The notes below the pieces were generated by a model. It was not told the origin of the DNA, did not search any database, and was given only the letters and a program-made list of their open reading frames with translations. A DNA stretch of 64,000 nucleotides, taken from assembly GCA_039024435.1 (NCBI GenBank), contig JBCCQH010000011.1:11940-75939 (forward strand), given 5' to 3'. The DNA comes from Bacteroidota bacterium (lineage in GTDB: Bacteria > Bacteroidota > Bacteroidia > J057 > JADKCL01). Below, piece by piece: positions 3,504-12,996 of this stretch. The translations under genes and the position numbers were made by a program. How positions within the stretch are numbered: the first letter of the stretch is position 1; each line of letters begins with the position of its first letter.

Positions 3504-4400
3504 CTACCCCTTTCCCAGCTTTCGCCCCCCGATCAGTTGCCGCCACTCCAGTTTCAGCGCCAGCCGAATCGGCAGGCTCGGATGCAAGCCCCAGCGCCAC
3601 AAGCGCCGGGGAAGAATCTGGTCGTGGTAAGGCCACTTCCGGGTATCGAGATCGGGGTCCAGCGCCCCAATCGCCCGCCAAAACTCCCGGCGATTGTGGG
3701 CAAATAGCTCGCGGTTGCGCCGTTTAAACACATCCTCCCCGATGTGAAAGGTCAAGTGGGCATCGTCCAGCAAGCGGAAATTCTCCCCAAAGGCAAAGAC
3801 ATTTTGCGCAGTCAGTATCCCAATAAAGGGAATGCCCACACAGACCTGCGCGAGTTGAAATCGGGGATAAATACTGCGGTGAAATACAAAACAATCAAAT
3901 CCCGGATGGGGCTTGCCCCGCTCGACGTACATTTCCGGCAACTGCTCTACCCGGCGGTAATGCCCCGGTATCCGGCGGCGGTTGATGATGAGCGCCCGGT
4001 GACCGAACCGCAGCAACTCGGCGACCTCCCGGTAAAAGTGGGGCTGCAGCGCGATGTCCACATTGGTGTAAATGAGGTATTCCGCGGCGGAATGATCGTA
4101 GAGCCGGTCGAGCAAGTCCCGAATCAAAGGGAACGGCGGTGCGGCTGCCCCCGGCACCAGGTCGCGCACGGAACGCTCCAGATCGGGAGTGGGCACGAAC
4201 CCTTTCGGAACTGCGGCCCGGTCCGCCGCAAACTGTGCACTGAGCAGATCAACTTGCACATGAGGGCCCGCCTGGTCCTGCGCCACACGCATGGAAGCGT
4301 AGGTAATCGGCTGCACATAAGCAAATTCCGAATCGGGTGACGCCCGAAACGGATTGATCAGGTGGGCAAAGTGGATATGAGCGGGGGATGCGGCCGACAT
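3504..4400 (-). CDS. Hypothetical protein, possibly GT-A-fold glycosyltransferase-like
   Basis: 298 aa ORF; EYLIYTNVDIAL (NxD), GFDCFVF. Confidence 0.65.
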   Translation of the reverse strand: MSAASPAHIHFAHLINPFRASPDSEFAYVQPITYASMRVAQDQAGPHVQVDLLSAQFAADRAAVPKGFVPTPDLERSVRDLVPGAAAPPFPLIRDLLDRLYDHSAAEYLIYTNVDIALQPHFYREVAELLRFGHRALIINRRRIPGHYRRVEQLPEMYVERGKPHPGFDCFVFHRSIYPRFQLAQVCVGIPFIGILTAQNVFAFGENFRLLDDAHLTFHIGEDVFKRRNRELFAHNRREFWRAIGALDPDLDTRKWPYHDQILPRRLWRWGLHPSLPIRLALKLEWRQLIGGRKLGKG

Positions 4401-4424
4401 GGCGGAGAATATTCAGGAAAACAA

Positions 4425-4447
4425 AAAGGGCTGCAAAGCAGCCCTTT
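4425..4447. terminator. Rho-independent terminator (T-tract on the minus strand)
   Basis: AAAGGGCTGC-aaa-GCAGCCCTTT perfect hairpin just downstream of the 4471-4965 gene. Confidence 0.75.
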
Positions 4448-4470
4448 ATATTGCGAGTCGTATTGATCTC

Positions 4471-4965
4471 TTATTCTTCAGTTTCCATCGTGGCTTCTTC
4501 TTCGCCTTCTCCACCACCCAGGTTGTCGAGTTCCTTGGCGGCTTCATCCATGGCTTCGTCGAATGCGCCTTCAATTTCTTTGCCGATGTCATCGAGCGGG
4601 TTGGCTCCACCGCCGTCCATCTTGGAGAAAGCAGCTTTCCACTCTCCGCCTTCCTTGACGAGGTTCAGCGTCATTTCTTTGCCGGCGTCGGTGTAGGTAG
4701 CGACTGCTTTGTCACCATCTTCTTCGACGTTGGTCACGACGATGTCGTCAGCGTTTCCAGCTTCACCCGGGGCGCTGGCTACCATTTCGATAGAAGCAAC
4801 TCCTTCTTCGGTGGCCATGGCCTTAGCGGCGTCGAAATCGCGGGTTTTCATCGCTTTGAGGAATTGTTCTGCGGTGCCTTTAGCGTCGAGCGCTTCACCA
4901 CCACAAGCCCAAAGGATCGTTACGCCGAGCAAGGCGAATGCGGCAATTTTCAGGGATCTAGTCAT
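4471..4965 (-). CDS. DUF4878-like (NTF2-like) lipoprotein, single domain with acidic tail
   Basis: Lipobox LWAC; AEQFLKAM...DFDAAK...VEEDGDKAVATY...L.LVKEGGEWK. Confidence 0.8.
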   Translation of the reverse strand: MTRSLKIAAFALLGVTILWACGGEALDAKGTAEQFLKAMKTRDFDAAKAMATEEGVASIEMVASAPGEAGNADDIVVTNVEEDGDKAVATYTDAGKEMTLNLVKEGGEWKAAFSKMDGGGANPLDDIGKEIEGAFDEAMDEAAKELDNLGGGEGEEEATMETEE

Positions 4966-5620
4966 AGTCGTACTTAAATATTAGGTTACAGTGATTGTTT
5001 AAATAAAGGTTATCAATAGCTACGTAAGGCTTGTTTATAACCTGCGACAAAGGTATAAAATTTTTGTCATTAGTTGCAAGCAATAAGGCCTTGTAGATCA
5101 TCTCACTGCAATACATTTTATTGTCGGTCTCCATGTCAAAATCGGTATCAAATTCGACCCCGGCGGCATAGTAACGATCCATGATGCGCATGAAGTCCGC
5201 CATTTCCTCGGGCGCGAGATCGTAGCGGAATATCCCAAACTTAAAAACCGCCGCCGGATGGCAGTAAAGGGAGATCGGATCAAGCTTCATTTTGTTGCTG
5301 GCGTTTTCCTCCCCGCCCGTAGCGTGGTAGACGTGCGCCTTTCCGTTGACCATTTTGATGATGCCGCTGTGGGAATATTGGGGGTCATCGGTGGAAAAAG
5401 ACAGGATGGCATCGCTGACAAATCCTTTGCTATGGCGCAAGATCAGGTCTCCGTCCTTCAGGATGCTTTGATCGAGGCCCGCCCCTTGCCATTTGGTTTG
5501 GTGCCGTTCGCTCAACCATTTGGGATAGGGATTGAAGTCCACGTGTTTGATCGTGTACCCCACAAAGGTCAAGAAAATGATGGAAAAAAGGCCTTGACGG
5601 ACCCGGTCATTTACAGTCAT
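4958..5620 (-). CDS. YiiX/YebB-like permuted NlpC/P60 cysteine hydrolase
   Basis: LKDGDLILR, YSHSGII (His), FDTDF....KMYCSEMIY (Cys), N-terminal TM; start taken at ATG 5620 just after a TACATTTG -7 box. Confidence 0.85.
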   Translation of the reverse strand: MTVNDRVRQGLFSIIFLTFVGYTIKHVDFNPYPKWLSERHQTKWQGAGLDQSILKDGDLILRHSKGFVSDAILSFSTDDPQYSHSGIIKMVNGKAHVYHATGGEENASNKMKLDPISLYCHPAAVFKFGIFRYDLAPEEMADFMRIMDRYYAAGVEFDTDFDMETDNKMYCSEMIYKALLLATNDKNFIPLSQVINKPYVAIDNLYLNNHCNLIFKYDYD

Positions 5621-5674
5621 AGCGCTGCAAATGTAGCAAATTCGTCCTGGAAATACACTTGGGGCGACCACAAC

Positions 5675-5703
5675 AAAAAACGGAACGGCCTGCAGCCGTT
5701 CCG
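5675..5703 (-). terminator. Rho-independent terminator of the Cys-rich mini-gene
   Basis: CGGAACGGC-N5-GCCGTTCCG hairpin followed by a T6 tract on the minus strand. Confidence 0.75.
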
Positions 5704-5763
5704 GTAGTCAAAACACAATACATGAATTCGGATCAAATGGATCGTTTTGGGAGGCAGCCGCAA

Positions 5764-5961
5764 TTATGCCGCGAGGCCCGCCTCCGCCTGCACCTGCTCA
5801 AGCGCTTCAAAATATTCCGGGCCGTAACCCAACTCATCATCGCCGGCCGCGAAATCTTCGCGTTCCGGAACCGTACCCATGCAAATGTCGCATTCACATC
5901 CAGGGGCCAGGAGGTACTGATTGGCGCAGGTGCAGAAAGAGGCAGTCTTGATCGTATTCAT
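5764..5961 (-). CDS. Small Cys-rich acidic protein (65 aa; CxC-x11-CxxC), paralog 1
   Basis: CTCANQYLLAPGCECDICMG ... YFEALE ... LAA; paralog at 10103-10318; own promoter and terminator. Confidence 0.7.
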   Translation of the reverse strand: MNTIKTASFCTCANQYLLAPGCECDICMGTVPEREDFAAGDDELGYGPEYFEALEQVQAEAGLAA

Positions 5962-6009
5962 TGCGGTGTGTATTGCTTTGTGCTTGACAATACAAGGATA
6001 GCGGTGGGT

Positions 6010-6028
6010 TTTGACATCTCGTGTCAAA
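6010..6028. promoter_or_regulatory. Palindromic operator TTTGACA-N5-TGTCAAA upstream of mini-protein 1
   Basis: Inverted repeat; TATCCTTG -7-like box starts 11 nt after TGTCA on the minus strand; motif recurs at 6405 and 10360. Confidence 0.7.
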
Positions 6029-6404
6029 GTAAACGGTAAAGATTCTTTTTTTTTGCCCGGAATCTTGCGCGCCTACCGGCGTATTTTCTCAAGCCTTGGG
6101 ACCTAAATGGAGCAATTGTGCTGGCAAATAAAACCACTTCTGCTTAACCCAAGTCGAACCTGGGCATCGCAGTGGCAATAAATAATCAGCCGCAAGCGTC
6201 CAGTAGCAGCCCTCAGCGGATTGGGTAAATCGGCTCGAAAACAAAGGCTTCCTCGCGGAAGCCTTTGGCTGAATACAGAACCATGAATTGATTGTGAGGT
6301 TGTGGCCGGAGAATCCGGCCCGTTGATTGATTGTTTTTCAAAGGGAAATTGCCCGGATCGCTCTGATCCTTTGTGAGCAACTGGGGCAATATCGGGAGGC
6401 AGTT

Positions 6405-6419
6405 TGACACCCTGTGTCA
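6405..6419. promoter_or_regulatory. Palindromic operator TGACAC-CCT-GTGTCA (further copy of the motif)
   Basis: Same motif; degenerate -7 box GATATTGC at the same 11-nt spacing on the minus strand. Confidence 0.55.
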
Positions 6420-6523
6420 GGTGGCGGTTCCATATTTCATCCACTTCGTTCTACTTTTTCTGATTTGCATTTCTGCCCAATCTTCCTCACCTGTGTCTTC
6501 GCGACGCGCGACAAAGGAGCAAA

Positions 6524-6623
6524 GAGGAGATCAGGAGGAATACGCAGTGATCTTGAGCGGGGCTGCTTTTCCGGCTCAATGCGGCACCGCCCAAGATCGC
6601 TACTTGGCCATCGCGATCTCCTC
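6524..6623. other. 100-nt rod-like inverted repeat with central bubble (candidate structured RNA)
   Basis: GAGGAGATC/GATCTCCTC outer stem; GCAGTGATCTTGAGCGG/CCGCCCAAGATCGCTAC inner stem; unpaired segment between them. Confidence 0.35.
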
Positions 6624-6685
6624 ACGGTGCCCTAGCGCGTTGGCGAAGACGGATTGGTGTTTTTTTACCTGACAAAGTAGAATTA

Positions 6686-6758
6686 GAGGCGGTGTAAAAT
6701 TGGTTTGTGAAATTTGCCAGCGCAGATTTTTTTGTCCATCGAAGCTCGTTTTGGAGTC
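6686..6758 (-). mobile_element. Truncated MITE copy (one end only)
   Basis: TTA-GAGGCGGTGTAAAATTGGTTTGTGAAATTTG...TTTTGGAGTC resembles the reverse complement of the right half of the 24508-24669 element. Confidence 0.75.
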
Positions 6759-6886
6759 GATGACGAGAGGCGAGTGGATCGGGTCGGGCAGGGTGCTTGG
6801 GAGGGGGGAAGATTCAGGTCCGGCGGCGAGTTGGCGAAGCGAAATAATCGGCTATTTTTAGGGCAACAATTGCAAATCATTCCGTT

Positions 6887-8008
6887 ATGAACTTTCTACC
6901 TTCTTTCCTGCTGGCCCTGGCGCTGGTATTTGCCGCTGGTTGCGGGAACGATCCCCAGAAAAACCCCACGGCCACGGCAACCGCATTTCTCGAAGCCCTG
7001 CAATTCGGGGACTACGAAAAAGCCAAAGGGTTCTGCTCACCGGGCACCCAAGACAATTTGGGAATGTTCCAACTGGCCTCCGGCCTCGGCAACAATCCTT
7101 TCAGCGAAGACTTTAAAATCCTCCGGGAGGAAATTTCCAGCGATGGCGGCTACGCCAAAGTCTTTTATGTCCAGGGGGATGAATCTCAAGAAAAGTACGT
7201 CCGGCTGCGCAACAATGACAAGCAATGGGAAGTCCTCGCCAATAAAACCGACTTGAGCCTAGACGACGATGAGGACACCGGTGGACTTTTGGATTCTGAC
7301 GAAGACGTAACCGATATCGACCACTCCCGTGCCCAGCGTACCCTGCGCGAAGGCAAATCCGCCCGCCAAATTGCCGAAGGCTTCCTGACCGCGATGATGT
7401 TTGGGGATTACGAAAAGGCCAAACGCTTCGCTTCCAGATCTTCGGGATCGGCGATCGATATGCAGAGTGGCATCGGCAGGAGCAGTCTGGAGGATTTTGA
7501 GGTCGACCGAGTGGAAGAAAACGACGAATTCGCGACGGCTTACTACACCGAAAAGGGAGAAACCGCCCAAAAAGAGCTGAAAATGAGCCGCGATGAGCTT
7601 GGTAATTGGCAGGTCATCATGAGCAAAAACGATGACAACGGCAGTGATACCGACTTCGATTTTGACTTGGAAGATGAGGCGGAAGAACAAACGCACGCCG
7701 AGGCGAACGAAAGACTGCGCGCCGGAAAAACCCCCAAACAGATCGCCACCAACTTCCTGGATGCGATGAGCCGCCGCGATTTCACTACCGCCAAACGCTA
7801 CGCTTCCAAGTCCTCGGAAACTGCCATCGATATGCAGGACAACAGCGGCAATTCCAGCATCAATGGATTTGAGATTATCCGCAGCCGCACCACGGGGGAC
7901 GAGGCAAGGGTTACTTACATTGAGCGGGACCAATCCCGGGAGCAGGAGTTGAAATTGAAGAAAGATCCGTTGGGCAACTGGCAAGTGATCATGAGCAAGG
8001 ACAACTGA
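6887..8008 (+). CDS. Lipoprotein with three tandem DUF4878/NTF2-like repeats
   Basis: Lipobox AAGC; three repeats A..FL.A(M/L)...D(Y/F)..AK..AS..S...W(Q/E)V separated by acidic linkers. Confidence 0.85.
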   Translation: MNFLPSFLLALALVFAAGCGNDPQKNPTATATAFLEALQFGDYEKAKGFCSPGTQDNLGMFQLASGLGNNPFSEDFKILREEISSDGGYAKVFYVQGDESQEKYVRLRNNDKQWEVLANKTDLSLDDDEDTGGLLDSDEDVTDIDHSRAQRTLREGKSARQIAEGFLTAMMFGDYEKAKRFASRSSGSAIDMQSGIGRSSLEDFEVDRVEENDEFATAYYTEKGETAQKELKMSRDELGNWQVIMSKNDDNGSDTDFDFDLEDEAEEQTHAEANERLRAGKTPKQIATNFLDAMSRRDFTTAKRYASKSSETAIDMQDNSGNSSINGFEIIRSRTTGDEARVTYIERDQSREQELKLKKDPLGNWQVIMSKDN

Positions 8009-8128
8009 CCGATCACGCACGAGTGGACCAAGCACAAAATATGCGGAGAATCCCGAGCACAGCGCATGAAAAAACAGAATTTGCGTTAAATTGCCCGTAC
8101 TTAATCATTTACAAACGACAATCACGAC

Positions 8129-9601
8129 ATGAAAAAATCGCTATTTATCCTGCTGGTCGCCATTGCTGGGGGAACGATCATAAGTGCTTACGGCGGGCAG
8201 GCCGACGAGGGCGAGCCGACCAAAGTCGCCGAGGCATTTCTGAAGGCCATGCAGAAACAAAAATTCAAAAAGGCCCGCGCGCTTTGCGCCCGCAGTTCGC
8301 ACGAGACCTTTGATAACTACGTGAACAATTTGAACCCGGAAAACCCGTATCCCTACGGTGCGCCTTACGAAATCGGGAACGAAAAAATCCTGGAAGATCT
8401 CGATATGGCACGGGTCTATTACCAGCAAGAAGGAACAAGAAAAATCATCACCCTGAACCTAAATGAGGGGCAATGGGAAGTGGATTTCGACAAATTGCAG
8501 ATGCCCAGTTTTGCGGGAATTGACGAGGATTCCGAAGAAATCGCCGAGACGCCCTCCCAGCACGCGCAGCGACACCGGGCCATGCGCGAAGGACGGGCCC
8601 CCGAGCAGATAGCGCGCGCTTTCCTCGATGCCATGATACGGACGGACTACGCCACCGCCAAGATTTACGCCTCCAAGTCTTCTGAATCCGCCCTTGACTT
8701 GACGGCGACCAATCCCGAGCCGACCCTGACTGGTTATCGGATCACCCAAGTCAGGGTAGACGAGCCCAGAGCAACGATTTTCTACATTGAAGACGGCGAG
8801 ACGGCAGAGAAAGAGCTGGCTCTGGAACAGGATGACTTGGGCAACTGGGAAGTATTTTTCACCAAAGAAGGTTCCACCGAAACGCCCCTTTCCGATGAAG
8901 CGCAGGAGCAAAAAAATGCCGATGAATACCGCGAATACCGGGAAGGCCTTTCTGCCGAAACAACAGCGGCCAATTTCTTGGGGGCCATTGCCCGTTCGGA
9001 TTTCGAAACCGCCCAGCGCTATGCCTCTTATTCTTCACAGATGCCGATTCTAATGCTCGGAGCGGCCGAAGAAAATAGCATGAGCGGAGCCCGCCTCCAG
9101 CGGGTCGAAGTCAACGGTGACAAAGCGGTGGCATATTATCTTGAGGGGGAGGAAACGGTTGAGAAAGAACTCAAGTTGAACCGGGATCCCAATGGACTCT
9201 GGCAGGTGATTATGACCAAAGACGAAGGGGCCGCTGATGCGGTGACCAACCCAGCGGAACAAAAGCAGCGTCACGCGGACAAGAACGTTGCAGTGCGCCG
9301 CGACCGCAGCGCCGAAGAAATCGGAACGGCATTCTTGAGTGCATTTGCCGAAAACGACTTTGCCCTCGCCAAGCAATACGCCTCCTACGAGTCCCAAACG
9401 AGCATCGATATGCTGGAAATGAGTGAGAGCAATCCCCTAAAAAGCGCAAGGATTTCGCGGGTAGTGGAAAATGGAGAGACCGCAACCCTCTATTACCGGG
9501 AATTTCTCGATTCCACGGAAAAAACCCTCAGCATGAACCGCGATCCCAATGGATTCTGGCAAGTAATCCTGAACAAGGATTCCGAGGGCAATATTGATTA
9601 G
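8129..9601 (+). CDS. Exported protein with four tandem DUF4878/NTF2-like repeats
   Basis: Signal peptide; four repeats of the same unit as in the upstream gene (later ones end L..D.(N/L)G.W(Q/E)V). Confidence 0.85.
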   Translation: MKKSLFILLVAIAGGTIISAYGGQADEGEPTKVAEAFLKAMQKQKFKKARALCARSSHETFDNYVNNLNPENPYPYGAPYEIGNEKILEDLDMARVYYQQEGTRKIITLNLNEGQWEVDFDKLQMPSFAGIDEDSEEIAETPSQHAQRHRAMREGRAPEQIARAFLDAMIRTDYATAKIYASKSSESALDLTATNPEPTLTGYRITQVRVDEPRATIFYIEDGETAEKELALEQDDLGNWEVFFTKEGSTETPLSDEAQEQKNADEYREYREGLSAETTAANFLGAIARSDFETAQRYASYSSQMPILMLGAAEENSMSGARLQRVEVNGDKAVAYYLEGEETVEKELKLNRDPNGLWQVIMTKDEGAADAVTNPAEQKQRHADKNVAVRRDRSAEEIGTAFLSAFAENDFALAKQYASYESQTSIDMLEMSESNPLKSARISRVVENGETATLYYREFLDSTEKTLSMNRDPNGFWQVILNKDSEGNID

Positions 9602-10102
9602 TGCGCTTCAAGGTTCGATTTTCGTTTGCCCGGAAGCGACTTTGCCCGCAATCACAATTCCATTTATTGGGGGCCGTAGCGCGCGCGGTCTCGCGCGCTA
9701 CGGCTATAATTTCTTGATGCCGGATGCGGAGGAAGAAATCCAGTCTGGGCCGGAAGGATGGAAGTGGACAATTCCCCAAAACGAAGGTGCCTGGTGCAAT
9801 TTACCGCAATACCACCGGTGGGCGAAGACCCGGAAGCACCCGTCGTGGGTCCGCCCGGCAGGCATGATGCCGGACGCATACCGGGCATTGAAAATCAAAG
9901 CGAGAAAACGACTTGTCCATCATCCCAAAAATCCCGAACCATCGGAGAAAATTGAGATGTGTCCCTACCTACCCCAAAAAGTAATCAGGGGCACCTGGCG
10001 GCGCCCCTGGGATCATTGCTGCTATTTAAGATGGGCTAAAATGAGATGGGAAAAAACTGCTAGGATCTACATAGTAGATATATTTCTATTCTTGCACAGC
10101 GA

Positions 10103-10318
10103 TTAAGCTGCGTACTCGATGTCTTCGTAATAAGTTTCCAGCTCTTCAAAGTAGAGCTCATCAAAAGGATCGCGGCTCACCATTTCCGGAAGCTCCGGCT
10201 CCGTACTGGAATCGGTAACCAAACCCATGCACAACTCACAGGTAGCACCGACATTGAGCAGGTGCTGGTTGGGGCAAGTGCAAGCGTGGACCTGGGTGTT
10301 GAAAATGATGCTGTTCAT
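10103..10318 (-). CDS. Small Cys-rich acidic protein (71 aa; CxC-x11-CxxC), paralog 2
   Basis: CTCPNQHLLNVGATCELCMG ... YFEELE ... YAA; A-rich TIR (AAAACAATT-ATG). Confidence 0.7.
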   Translation of the reverse strand: MNSIIFNTQVHACTCPNQHLLNVGATCELCMGLVTDSSTEPELPEMVSRDPFDELYFEELETYYEDIEYAA

Positions 10319-10359
10319 AATTGTTTTCCTTTTGGTGACACTACAAATATTCGGAGTGC

Positions 10360-10380
10360 TTTTGACACCTCGTGTCAAAA
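10360..10380. promoter_or_regulatory. Palindromic operator TTTTGACAC-CTC-GTGTCAAAA upstream of mini-protein 2
   Basis: Perfect 9-bp arms; AATATTTG -7-like box 11 nt after TGTCA on the minus strand. Confidence 0.75.
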
Positions 10381-10687
10381 ACCACAACAATATTTTTTGC
10401 CTTTGCCTTTTTCATTGGTACGAATATACCATTTTTATTAGCGAATAAAAATAGCTTTGCGATCATTTTGCAAACTTTTCTCTGCTCCCGGGCTTTCCCG
10501 TGCACCCAAAACCCACTTATCCGAACGGCAGATACTAATTTTATTGACGAAATACTTCCCGACCAGCGATTTTTATTCGGAACTAAATCTTTCGCAACGA
10601 ACTGATCTCGGAAAATGTGCAAATCTCGCCCCTCGGAAATAGAGTAATTTCCCTACATTTAAATAGTTGTCAGGAAGTAGCCACAAT

Positions 10688-12031
10688 ATGAATACCGAAC
10701 CCAAGCGGCCCATTGCGATTGACCTCTTCGCCGGGGTTGGGGGGATGAGTTTGGGGTTTGAACAGGCGGGTTTTGATATCATTGGTGCAGTGGAAATCGA
10801 TCCGATTCACGCAGCCGCCCATCGGTACAACTTTCCCCATTGCATCGTTTTCCCCCATTCTGTACGGAACTTGAGCGGCGCCCAAATTCGGGAAGGTGCG
10901 GGAATTGGTGACCGGGAAGTCGATCTGGTGATTGGGGGAGCGCCTTGTCAGGGCTTCTCACTCATGGGGCAGCGTGCCCTGGATGACCCCAGAAACGGCC
11001 TCGTCAAAGACTTCGTACGACTCGTCGCGGAATTGGACGCGGCCTACTTTGTATTCGAAAACGTCAAAGGGCTGACCGTGGGGAAACACCGGCGCTTTCT
11101 GGGAGAAATCATCGAAGAATTCCAAAAAATCGGCTATAACGTGCTGACTGAGTGGAAAGTTCTAAACGCAGCGGACTACGGGGTGCCGCAGAACCGCCAC
11201 CGGCTCATTTTAATGGGGGCCAAAAAGGGACGCCCCTTACCTGCCTATCCCAGTCCGATCACCTCCCCGGCGAATCAACCGACAATTTCCGATCTGCCCC
11301 CCGGCCCCAACTGCTTTGCCGCCATCGGGGACCTGCCCGAAGCCGAACACTTTCCGGAACTACTGGCCGGAGATGCGGTGCTCACCGACCAGTGGGCCAT
11401 CCCGAGCGACTACGCCCGGGAGATGAAATGCCAAACGCGCCGGGATTGGCACCTGGGCTACCGGCGCAATTTTGACCGAGCCTGGCTGACGGCCAGCGCC
11501 CGGACCAAGCACACGGCAATTTCGCGGGAGCGATTTCGCAATACCCCACCCGGAGAAGTCGAGCCGATCTCCCGCTTCTTTAAGCTCAACCGCACCGGCA
11601 TAAGCAATACCTTGCGGGCCGGAACGGACTCCTCTCGGGGAGCATTTACCAGTCCCCGTCCCATTCATTACGCGGCGGCGCGCTGCATTACTGTGCGGGA
11701 AATGGCCCGACTGCACGGATTTCCCGATTGGTTCCGCTTCCACGTAACGAAATGGCACGGCGCCCGCCAGATCGGCAATGCAGTTCCCCCTCCCCTCGCC
11801 CGGGCGGTCGGGAGTGCCATCCTGGCCGCGATCGGCACCGATCTCTCCCCCCCCGAAACCGTAGTCGAGTTGGGAGACTCGGCCTGGCTGAGATTGAACA
11901 TGGCCCAGGCAGCCAAATTTTTCGGCATCGAAGTGCCCATCGCCAAGCGCAACCGGAAAAGCGGGGCCAAAAAACGCAAACAATCGGAAATCAAAGCGCC
12001 CATCCAAGGCGTTCTCTTTCCAGAAAACTGA
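10688..12031 (+). CDS. DNA (cytosine-5)-methyltransferase
   Basis: Motifs I DLFAGVGG, IV GGAPCQGFS, VI FENVKG, VIII PQNRHR, IX/X TVREMARLHGFPD and QIGNAVPP. Confidence 0.95.
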   Translation: MNTEPKRPIAIDLFAGVGGMSLGFEQAGFDIIGAVEIDPIHAAAHRYNFPHCIVFPHSVRNLSGAQIREGAGIGDREVDLVIGGAPCQGFSLMGQRALDDPRNGLVKDFVRLVAELDAAYFVFENVKGLTVGKHRRFLGEIIEEFQKIGYNVLTEWKVLNAADYGVPQNRHRLILMGAKKGRPLPAYPSPITSPANQPTISDLPPGPNCFAAIGDLPEAEHFPELLAGDAVLTDQWAIPSDYAREMKCQTRRDWHLGYRRNFDRAWLTASARTKHTAISRERFRNTPPGEVEPISRFFKLNRTGISNTLRAGTDSSRGAFTSPRPIHYAAARCITVREMARLHGFPDWFRFHVTKWHGARQIGNAVPPPLARAVGSAILAAIGTDLSPPETVVELGDSAWLRLNMAQAAKFFGIEVPIAKRNRKSGAKKRKQSEIKAPIQGVLFPEN

Positions 12032-12193
12032 GAGGCTATTTAAATTTAATCCTGAAATTTTGTTATGGCAGCTTTTTCCGCCCCTCTTCAGCTATTTTGG
12101 AGTCCATAGCTCAGGCTATGGACTCCAAAATGAGCTTTGATGAACAAAAAAATCGGCGATAACAAATTTCACAAATCAATTTTAAAACGCCTC
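12032..12193. mobile_element. 162-bp MITE, IS5/IS1031-like ends, TGA target duplication
   Basis: TIRs GAGGCTATTTAAA/TTTAAAACGCCTC; flanking TGA on both sides; internal hairpin TTTTGGAGTCCATAGC-TCAG-GCTATGGACTCCAAAA; full-length relative at 24508. Confidence 0.8.
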
Positions 12194-12198
12194 TGAGC

Positions 12199-12996
12199 AT
12201 GGCCGAATCCCGCCGGAACCGCTACCAAGCATTGATCGAAAAAATCTTCTTCGACCACTACACGCCGGGGCGGGAGCAGTTTGAGTTTCACCGATCCGAG
12301 TTCGCCCCCGCCGCCATTGCCCTCGCCATCGCGTTGCCAAAAAACCTCGGCGATGTCATTTACTCGGTCCGCTACCGCACGCCGCTTCCGGCCTCGATTC
12401 GCGATACCGAACCCGCCGGCAAAGAATGGATCATCGACGGAGCGGGCCGCGCCAAATACCAGTTCCGCCTCGTAGCGATCAACCGCATCGTCCCGAATCC
12501 CGAACTTCGGGCAGTGAAAATTCCGGATGCGACGCCGGAAATCATCGCGGCCCACGCCCTCTCGGACGAACAGGCGCTCCTCGCCAAGGTCCGCTACAAC
12601 CGCCTCATCGACATCTTCCTGGGCATGGCCTGCTATTCGCTGCAAAACCACCTCCGGACCACGGTCAAAGATATCGGGCAGATCGAGATCGATGAGATTT
12701 ACGTCGGCGTCGATGCCCAAGGCCGCCAATACATCGTTCCGGTCCAGGCCAAAAGCGGGAAAGATCAACTGGCGACGGTGCAGACGAAACAGGACCTGGC
12801 TTGCTGCGCGGAAAAGTTTCCCGATCTCATTTGCCGGCCGATCAGCGCACAATTCATCGAGGACGACCTCATCGCGGTTTTTGAGTTGGCGATGGAAAAC
12901 CAAACGATCAAAATCGTACAGGAACGGCACTATCACTTGGTTCCCAGCCGATTCATTTCGTCAGCGGACCTGCGGGGCTACCGCAACCCTTCCTGA
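12199..12996 (+). CDS. Putative type II restriction endonuclease, PD-(D/E)xK-like
   Basis: Directly downstream of the m5C MTase; QIEIDEIYVG...IVPVQAKS resembles a nuclease active-site motif. Confidence 0.75.
   Translation: MAESRRNRYQALIEKIFFDHYTPGREQFEFHRSEFAPAAIALAIALPKNLGDVIYSVRYRTPLPASIRDTEPAGKEWIIDGAGRAKYQFRLVAINRIVPNPELRAVKIPDATPEIIAAHALSDEQALLAKVRYNRLIDIFLGMACYSLQNHLRTTVKDIGQIEIDEIYVGVDAQGRQYIVPVQAKSGKDQLATVQTKQDLACCAEKFPDLICRPISAQFIEDDLIAVFELAMENQTIKIVQERHYHLVPSRFISSADLRGYRNPS

Follow-up and report, generated by a model that had tools for sequence, protein, structure and literature searches.

Two paralogous genes for very small acidic proteins (miniproteins) in a Bacteroidota bacterium belong to an undescribed protein family, which rather probably constitutes the lineage-specific core of what a WYL-type regulon produces, and in that regulon damage-induced miniproteins would be activated by a WYL regulator and switched on together with recA. 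The genes were found in a stretch of 64,000 nucleotides (hereafter the window, whose coordinates are used below; assembly GCA_039024435.1, contig JBCCQH010000011.1, positions 11,940 to 75,939 of the forward strand). Each gene is preceded by a 17-bp palindrome at a fixed distance from a -7-type promoter box, and the same palindrome, exact or with 1-2 mismatches, stands upstream of recA in each of the 10 genomes of this organism's taxonomic family, a marine one, in which recA was found. The features of the two genes are as follows.

5764-5961, minus strand: miniprotein 1 gene, 65 amino acids, C-terminus GLAA; putative Cys4 knuckle, linker and acidic YFEALE helix
6011-6027: palindrome TTGACA-CGAGA-TGTCAA (minus-strand reading) in the miniprotein 1 promoter, candidate WYL-activator site
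6000-5993, minus strand: -7-type box TATCCTTG, exactly 10 nucleotides past the palindrome, miniprotein 1
5703-5681, minus strand: intrinsic terminator hairpin (10 pairs and a T run), 3' of miniprotein 1
10103-10318, minus strand: miniprotein 2 gene, 71 amino acids, C-terminus EYAA; nearest to the family consensus
10362-10378: palindrome TTGACA-CGAGG-TGTCAA in the miniprotein 2 promoter
10351-10344, minus strand: -7-type box AATATTTG, exactly 10 nucleotides past the palindrome, miniprotein 2
10009-9986, minus strand: terminator-like hairpin, about 95 nucleotides past the miniprotein 2 stop

An earlier note on this DNA had proposed these two open reading frames (ORFs) as paralogs, and both are borne out on the minus strand (BLASTP, 41% identity over 64 columns, E 2e-10). 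Of the features that it described, the CxCxNQxLLxxGxxCxxCMG block, the acidic YFExLE tail and the Ala-Ala (AA) end are all found in both proteins. No other copies exist in the whole genome (7.66 Mb, 218 contigs). Neither a signal peptide nor a membrane segment was detected in the miniproteins, which are predicted to be cytosolic. Each gene is its own transcription unit; a terminator had been noted earlier for the first gene alone, and hairpins in fact follow both. Among the sequencing runs listed as covering window positions 5500-10500, there were no RNA runs and only 4 DNA runs, from one marine-metagenome study, and an Rfam search over 4000-12500 returned two sub-threshold chance matches and nothing else.

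A family for either miniprotein was sought in Pfam (hmmscan against all of Pfam-A, E ≤ 1) and none was matched, including those of SulA and DinI; no NCBIfam model matched either protein, and PHROGs and PADLOC gave nothing at E ≤ 0.01. A word-indexed search detected 8 relatives, and a profile search of 1.84 billion cluster representatives returned 58 matches at E ≤ 1e-3, of which 23 were at E ≤ 1e-10. The miniproteins are real members of a family that is undescribed, as the earlier note had considered possible; there is no Pfam or NCBIfam match and no sequence or fold match in the PDB (see below). Its additional suggestion that gene callers would easily miss the family was overstated, since 58 clusters of called proteins exist and the 71-residue miniprotein 2 is present letter for letter in the ESM Atlas. 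The Atlas features gave a best score of 0.88 to unannotated clusters and 0.85 to NinF, which should be regarded as leads only. No longer or fused forms of the family were observed among 7998 candidates, which is weak evidence.

Residue conservation was assessed in an alignment of 46 rows, in which C13, C15, C27, C30, F57 and the last Ala (A71) are invariant and N17, G24, G32, Y56, E58, L60, E61 and the penultimate Ala (A70) are conserved in at least 90%; the linker joining the Cys block and the helix is variable in both length and sequence. Among 64 family proteins of up to 200 amino acids (the two window proteins and 62 relatives, with two long Cys-repeat matches excluded), the CxC...CxxC pattern was present in 63 and both motifs in 57. 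The median net charge of these proteins is -8, and the family tail is strongly acidic and aromatic-rich. Selection was examined in 14 distinct genes of related genomes (91 pairs), for which the median proportions of nonsynonymous (pN) and synonymous (pS) differences were 0.41 and 0.74, and the miniprotein motifs survive saturated synonymous change. A lack of homologs or of purifying selection had been named earlier as grounds for abandoning the family; homologs were found, and so was purifying selection. That the genes might be chance ORFs was considered and rejected, as conservation persists despite saturated dS.

The family is represented in every one of the 11 further genomes of its taxonomic family, in most cases by two copies separated by 0.5-4 kb. 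In 49 genomes from ten other families of the order, only one weak match (E 0.008) was detected, located inside a 4561-residue frame and belonging to the next family (1 of the 35 genomes there). A search for related loci with a narrower miniprotein alignment found 2 loci in genome contigs, and two peptide patterns applied to metagenome and viral contigs revealed no miniprotein relative.

AlphaFold2 run on the family alignment gave a mean predicted local distance difference test (pLDDT) score of 81.5, with the knuckle at about 90, a weaker linker and a helix at 54-66. The model had 0 matches in a Foldseek search of the PDB and no alignment with Z ≥ 2 in an exhaustive structural comparison with the same database, and a profile search of PDB sequences returned nothing significant. 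The CxC...CxxC spacing is that of a Cys4 knuckle, and no described zinc-ribbon family or fold was matched in Pfam, NCBIfam, Foldseek or the structural alignment. The miniproteins would fold around one Zn ion via this N-terminal knuckle, and the acidic amphipathic helix (F/Y)DxxYFExLE may provide the effector surface that binds a target.

The C-terminal Ala-Ala occurs in 52 of the 57 members that carry both motifs (YAA 13, FAA 13, LAA 8, others 18), against a background of 14 among 4343 ORFs of at least 250 amino acids in this genome (0.32%); the residues before it vary and the AA itself is conserved. ClpX reads C-termini of the ...LAA and ...VAA type (C-motif 1). The genome's own transfer-messenger RNA (tmRNA) tag is GNNNFALAA and ClpX is encoded (ClpX zinc-finger match 5.7e-16), so that both sequence features of an ssrA-like degron, a hydrophobic-Ala-Ala end and an encoded ClpX, are present. 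The Ala-Ala end probably serves as an ssrA-like degron for ClpXP or another AAA+ protease, in which case the miniprotein would vanish soon after promoter shut-off and its level would closely track promoter activity. The zinc-finger-like motif, the terminal AA and the inducibility proposed in the earlier note are supported by four invariant Cys, a near-invariant AA end and a promoter of the inducible type, and this Cys4 family is probably inducible and short-lived.

Both miniprotein genes are preceded by the palindrome TTGACACGAG(A/G)TGTCAA (17 bp, TTGACA-N5-TGTCAA), and a pattern search gave 4 matches at 3 distinct sites, the expectation from shuffles being 0.25. The -7 consensus of Bacteroidota is TAnnTTTG; the miniprotein promoters have no -33 element, the palindrome being found in that place. 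Of 14 distinct miniprotein genes compared across related genomes, 13 have an exact palindrome upstream and the 14th has one with a single mismatch, and all 14 promoters have an xAxxTTTG-type box exactly 10 nucleotides past it. The common promoter architecture previously claimed for the two genes is real and sharper than described (palindrome, 10 nucleotides, -7 box); the shared element stood, and its sharing with recA and its WYL regulator context had been missed. The possibility that the palindrome is a mere sigma-70 -35 hexamer was rejected on the grounds of its full dyad, its restriction to this family and its pairing with a Bacteroidota -7 box.

There are 38 exact palindromes in this genome, versus 1 for the reversed control; 23 of the 38 precede an IS1595-family transposase, mostly at contig ends, and 15 are single-copy sites. 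Allowing one dyad mismatch added 16 sites (control 4). When exact sites and one-dyad-mismatch sites in promoter orientation were listed for this genome, the genes behind the box included recA, the genes of both miniproteins, two of the DUF1508 (YegP-like) family, an HU-like gene, a pair of paralogous genes for small membrane proteins, an NHLP-like gene and another IS1595 transposase gene, and most boxes not belonging to insertion sequences had a -7 box at offset 10. Across the 12 genomes of the taxonomic family, the box was located 133-175 nucleotides 5' of recA in all 10 with a recA match (8 exact, 2 with 1-2 mismatches), recA not being found in the other two (93% and 72% complete). The number of boxes per genome ranged from 2 to 38 in this family (control 0-1) and from 0 to 3 in the 49 genomes of other families. 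An exact 17-mer scan of public metagenome contigs yielded 54 loci, mostly evident chance; 6 of them had a -7-like box at offset 10, representing 3 miniprotein genes, 1 recA, 1 DUF1508-like gene and 1 unclear case, with the recA and DUF1508-like calls made by eye from the translation. As the box is conserved before both across genomes and in metagenomes, the conserved core of the predicted regulon is recA and the miniprotein genes.

Several other boxed loci were observed in this genome (contigs are given by our own numbers). The IS1595-family element (transposase start MNLFNFIAQFPDEQSC...) bears the palindrome TTGACACGAGATGTCAA about 45 nucleotides before its transposase gene, with 1-3 tandem TTTGCCACGGC-like repeats ahead of it; the 23 copies of the element (e.g., C8:93-109, C20:86-102, C77:106-122) break the assembly, and transposase expression may be tied to the same regulator. 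The DUF1508 (YegP-like) genes behind the box (C27:19787-20137 and C172:2211-2561), together with one on an unrelated metagenome contig, suggest from their promoters that the DUF1508 family belongs to the same stress regulon. Two tandem membrane-protein paralogs of 70-80 amino acids (C3:45895-46137 and C3:46370-46582) each have their own box and are candidates for DidA/SidA-like membrane checkpoint proteins; boxed small membrane proteins were found in 3 of the 12 genomes of the family (single-sequence query), miniproteins in all. In addition, three boxes with strong -7 boxes (TATATTTA/G), at C49:10602-10618, C49:11077-11093 and C29:47106, have no ATG-started ORF of at least 45 amino acids in the next several hundred bases; one of these stretches contains tandem repeats, and they may be non-coding RNAs of the regulon.

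The genome encodes a single-copy protein with HTH_11, WYL and WCX domains (Pfam 2.4e-7, 2.9e-8 and 1.5e-8, respectively), whose profile matched PafBC (5.8e-14), PafC (8e-14) and DriD (1.1e-7) in the PDB. Orthologs with 53-100% identity were identified in all 12 genomes of the taxonomic family and only paralogs of at most 36% elsewhere, so that their taxonomic range matches that of the box. Ten of the 12 genomes have the WYL gene 100-620 nucleotides 5' of a miniprotein gene and on its strand, the exceptions being this genome and one fragmented assembly. A distant WYL paralog was observed in another family, where its genome's only such palindrome is 27 nucleotides from the start of the gene. In PMC12392091, the DdaA box is given as CGWCA-N5-TGWCG and the DriD box as CGAC-N7-GTCG; a GACA-N5-TGTC core with a 5-bp spacer is common to the DdaA box and the box described here. 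According to PMC13004042, DriD sites keep a constant spacing to the -10 element and overlap the -35 position. Both properties of such a WYL-type promoter were found here, namely a box at a fixed distance in place of the -35/-33 element (14 of 14) and a palindromic GAC...GTC core. On the basis of gene adjacency, matching range, fixed box position, a DdaA-like core and the boxless upstream regions of the S24 gene, the evidence favours this protein as the putative reader of the box over the genome's only HTH_XRE-Peptidase_S24 protein, which is discussed below.

The box would be the docking site of this single-copy HTH-WYL-WCX regulator, whose relatives PafBC, DriD and DdaA respond to single-stranded DNA by turning on transcription upon DNA damage, and the WYL protein, once activated by single-stranded DNA (ssDNA), would recruit RNA polymerase to the box promoters and thereby turn on recA and the miniproteins. 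DdaA and DriD are described as ssDNA-sensing activators with the checkpoint targets aciT and didA, and DdaA as activating both recA and the division inhibitor gene aciT (PMC13010146, PMC13004042). By analogy with DidA, AciT and SulA, which are unstable or damage-induced division inhibitors, the miniproteins might arrest division or act in a checkpoint, or, by analogy with DinI, they might be DNA mimics acting on RecA or another DNA-binding protein; these are our leading guesses, and each taken singly is rather doubtful. More comprehensively, the taxonomic family might run a LexA-independent, WYL-driven response to ssDNA or damage, the core of which would be recA and a Zn-knuckle miniprotein with an ssrA-like timer that arrests division or RecA/nucleoid activity only during damage, a reading that we offer tentatively, as possible.

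A number of observations weigh against a WYL-activated damage response of this kind. In this genome the WYL gene is found on a separate contig (C82:28163-29080) with no box within 2 kb, and WYL regulators may also repress, as stated in PMC13010146. The only classical repair gene with a box in this genome is recA, dinB has none in spite of lying 2.3 kb from the WYL gene, and allowing two mismatches in the palindrome gave no gain over the control (2 versus 2); for these reasons the signal could be other than DNA damage. Compared with the miniproteins, the boxed small membrane proteins are more like the known division inhibitors of the membrane type, and the guess of a division inhibitor is lowered accordingly. 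In addition, the dN/dS of about 0.3 is a rough value only, dS being saturated (at least 0.95 in all usable pairs), the predicted template modelling score (pTM) of the AlphaFold2 model is only 0.41, and the single-sequence model of miniprotein 2 in the ESM Atlas is poor (pLDDT 0.48).

The genes surrounding the miniprotein genes in the window, together with a third box, are listed below.

4471-4965, minus strand: DUF4878/NTF2-like lipoprotein with an acidic tail, part of the conserved island
4958-5671, minus strand: YiiX-like permuted papain peptidase (Peptidase_C92); in relatives it keeps synteny with the miniprotein genes and has its own box
6404-6420, plus strand: degenerate box TTGACACCCTGTGTCAG with one dyad mismatch and a weak CATATTTC 10 nucleotides downstream, directed toward the lipoprotein genes; function uncertain
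6887-8008 and 8129-9601, plus strand: two multi-repeat NTF2-like lipoprotein genes, between the miniprotein genes
10667-12031, divergent from miniprotein 2: C5 DNA methyltransferase (PF00145, 1.8e-68; PADLOC MTase_II, 1.8e-169)
12199-12996, after the methyltransferase: type II restriction endonuclease (PADLOC REase_II, 2.1e-127)

The miniprotein genes do flank two repeat genes, as had been noted earlier, and the DUF4878 label then given to these is sub-threshold, since Pfam DUF4878 is below the cut-off in both (E 0.11); the best match of the second is MecA_N/NTF2-like (4.6e-5). Between miniprotein 1 and the first of these genes, about 850 bp (6030-6886) are devoid of a convincing ORF or Rfam match; the degenerate box in it sits 467 nucleotides from the lipoprotein genes, and the stretch may serve as a long leader or contain a small gene or RNA missing from the annotation. 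The island runs, in each of four relatives, from an SDR gene through those of the WYL regulator, the miniprotein (1-2 copies), a DUF4878-type lipoprotein, the YiiX-like Peptidase_C92 and further DUF4878 lipoproteins to that of a CBS-like enzyme. An additional box occurs between the first lipoprotein and YiiX-like genes in three of the four, directed toward the YiiX-like operon in two. The window retains the miniprotein, YiiX-like and lipoprotein part of this island, and the regulator is not there.

The position of the restriction-modification (R-M) pair differs from this conserved order. It is not present at the equivalent locus in any of the four relatives, in which the WYL gene is found on that side instead. 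A short repeat with inverted ends (...CCATGGACTCCAAAATGAGCT...) was detected at about 12040-12160 of the window, just past the methyltransferase gene, and the same repeat was detected at C82:29080-29250, just past the WYL regulator gene; the repeat may be a trace of the rearrangement by which the regulator and the miniprotein genes became separated here. Because the pair is missing from the locus of the relatives and the repeat lies beside both the R-M pair and the WYL gene, the adjacency is incidental, a matter of local rearrangement, and outside the system. The second miniprotein gene is indeed divergent from the methyltransferase gene, as had been observed before, and the functional R-M link, or restriction alleviation, that was read into this arrangement has not survived the comparison with relatives. 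Taken as a whole, the earlier note was right about an undescribed Cys4 family, probably inducible and short-lived, wrong about the R-M link and incomplete in its regulatory context.

Other explanations of the box and of the proteins have been weighed. The box might be the SOS operator of the single HTH_XRE-Peptidase_S24 protein, a non-canonical LexA, with the miniproteins derepressed after RecA-stimulated self-cleavage. Such a protein, with HTH_3 and Peptidase_S24 domains, is encoded once in the genome (C30:44495-45283) and conserved in 10 of 11 relatives, and recA, a core SOS gene, bears the box. The Bacteroidetes LexA motifs given in PMC8565304 also consist of two half-sites separated by five bases (GGA-N5-TCC, CTAA-N5-TTAG and TTAC-N5-GTAA); however, the dyad found here is unlike all published LexA motifs of the phylum and matches the core of the WYL regulator DdaA. 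Furthermore, dinB is boxless, the S24 gene never neighbours the miniprotein genes (the WYL gene does so in 10 of 12 genomes), and a single fixed distance from box to -7 element (14 of 14) is more in keeping with an activator site than with an operator. Autoregulation is normal for LexA-type repressors, but the TTGACA palindrome was found in none of 10 S24 upstream regions, which share a TTAGC-N5-GCTAA-like element; neither GGA-N5-TCC or CTAA-N5-TTAG in the box nor S24 autoregulation through it was observed, and this explanation appears unlikely. With regard to the S24 gene itself, the TTAGC-N5-GCTAA-like palindrome in relatives lies about 70-95 nucleotides upstream and is unlike the published CTAA-N5-TTAG; as a second regulon motif it was dropped, with 1 exact site in the genome and no enrichment.

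Three further explanations concern the proteins rather than the box. The miniprotein might be a feedback modulator, whose acidic aromatic helix mimics ssDNA and binds the WYL domain or RecA to tune or end the response, with the degron setting the time constant. Small co-regulators or RecA modulators with acidic helices (DdrR, DinI) provide a precedent, the tail is strongly acidic and aromatic-rich, and 10 of 12 genomes have a miniprotein gene directly 3' of the WYL gene. However, this adjacency is already explained by regulation, as DriD likewise activates its neighbour gene and not itself (PMC13004042), and there is no match to DinI or another Pfam family. The pair is also unlinked in this genome, and such a modulator seems distinctly unlikely; a structure prediction of two copies of the WYL regulator with miniprotein 2 gave a score of 0.00 (mark 0.32), which is evidence neither way. 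The ORFs might also be precursors of ribosomally synthesized and post-translationally modified peptides (RiPPs) or secreted Cys-rich peptides instead of folded zinc proteins, which would accord with their short length, their richness in Cys and a conserved C-terminal part rich in Tyr and Glu; an NHLP-type leader-like gene elsewhere in the genome has the same box. This appears very improbable, considering that no radical-SAM, cyclodehydratase, lanthionine or peptidase-transporter genes were found in the conserved neighbourhood of the four relatives, that there is no signal peptide, that the CxC...CxxC spacing does not vary and the knuckle is modelled with confidence, that the terminal AA is kept while the preceding residues vary, and that the genes are apparently co-regulated with recA. 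An anti-restriction role as a DNA-mimic inhibitor tied to the adjacent R-M system, which the earlier note had in mind, would fit the very acidic protein and the divergent position of miniprotein 2 next to a type II methyltransferase-endonuclease pair. It is largely refuted by synteny (the pair is at the locus in 0 of 4 relatives), the repeat element flanks the R-M insertion, and neither a PADLOC or PHROG match nor, with the patterns used, a relative on viral contigs was found, which makes this role hardly credible.

If the reading of a WYL-activated output is correct, it would have consequences beyond this locus. Small effectors induced by damage, SulA, DidA, AciT and DinI among them, are confined to particular lineages and difficult to detect. 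To our knowledge, none is known for Bacteroidota, a statement for which no targeted literature search was made. Only non-canonical LexA regulons are described for Bacteroidota (PMC8565304), and a literature search on WYL, Bacteroidetes, recA and DNA damage returned work on PafBC, SiwR and DdaA as well as reviews, with no paper on a WYL-controlled recA in the phylum among them. The locus would represent a compact module with one regulator, one fixed-geometry 17-bp box, recA and a protein of 65-71 amino acids, the latter composed of three separable parts (a putative Zn knuckle, an acidic helix and an AA end). Damage sensing of the DriD/DdaA type would then extend to Bacteroidota. The new family would combine a binding helix with a constitutive degron, a natural "self-erasing" regulator. 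On the more comprehensive reading, offered above as possible, the miniproteins would moreover correspond in function to SulA, DidA, AciT or DinI while differing from them in fold, and no effector of this kind would have been proposed for the phylum before.

Several known systems share individual properties with the one described here. DinI and SulA are induced together with recA, SulA is unstable, the acidic C-terminal helix of DinI acts on RecA, and YacG combines a zinc finger with an acidic tail. All three are as small as the miniproteins, but no sequence or fold relation to them was detected in Pfam or the PDB. Similarly, ssrA-like degrons are known from the tmRNA tag, the LexA N-fragment and RecN. 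The hydrophobic-Ala-Ala ends among the 52 of 57 AA-bearing members resemble them, the organism's own tag ending in FALAA, whereas some members end in EAA, QAA, TAA or SA.

Among WYL systems, PafBC of mycobacteria (RecA-NDp promoters) gave the best sequence match to the regulator (5.8e-14 to 8e-14). It drives recA in a LexA-independent manner and has a site that takes the place of the -35 element; it differs in being a heterodimer or fusion with a non-palindromic motif and a large regulon. DidA, a target of DriD in Caulobacter crescentus, is a membrane protein, in contrast to the miniproteins, which have no membrane segment. DriD (targets didA, bapE and CCNA_03891) matched the regulator profile at 1.1e-7 and, according to PMC13004042, is a homodimeric WYL activator without autoregulation that activates a neighbour gene and a small checkpoint protein from a site at the -35 position, as proposed here. 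Unlike the box described here, the DriD box is ATACGAC-N7-GTCGTAT, and Caulobacter also has a LexA SOS system controlling recA. The DdaA regulon of Acinetobacter (Moraxellaceae) belongs to another phylum, its box lies about 50 bp 5' of the transcription start site, whereas the box here abuts the -7 box, and the regulon here is much smaller. The likeness is one of box, domain and target, and at this level the two systems have in common an HTH-WYL-WCX regulator, a GACA-N5-TGTC core with a 5-bp spacer, recA in the regulon and a lineage-specific gene for a small putative effector under the box.

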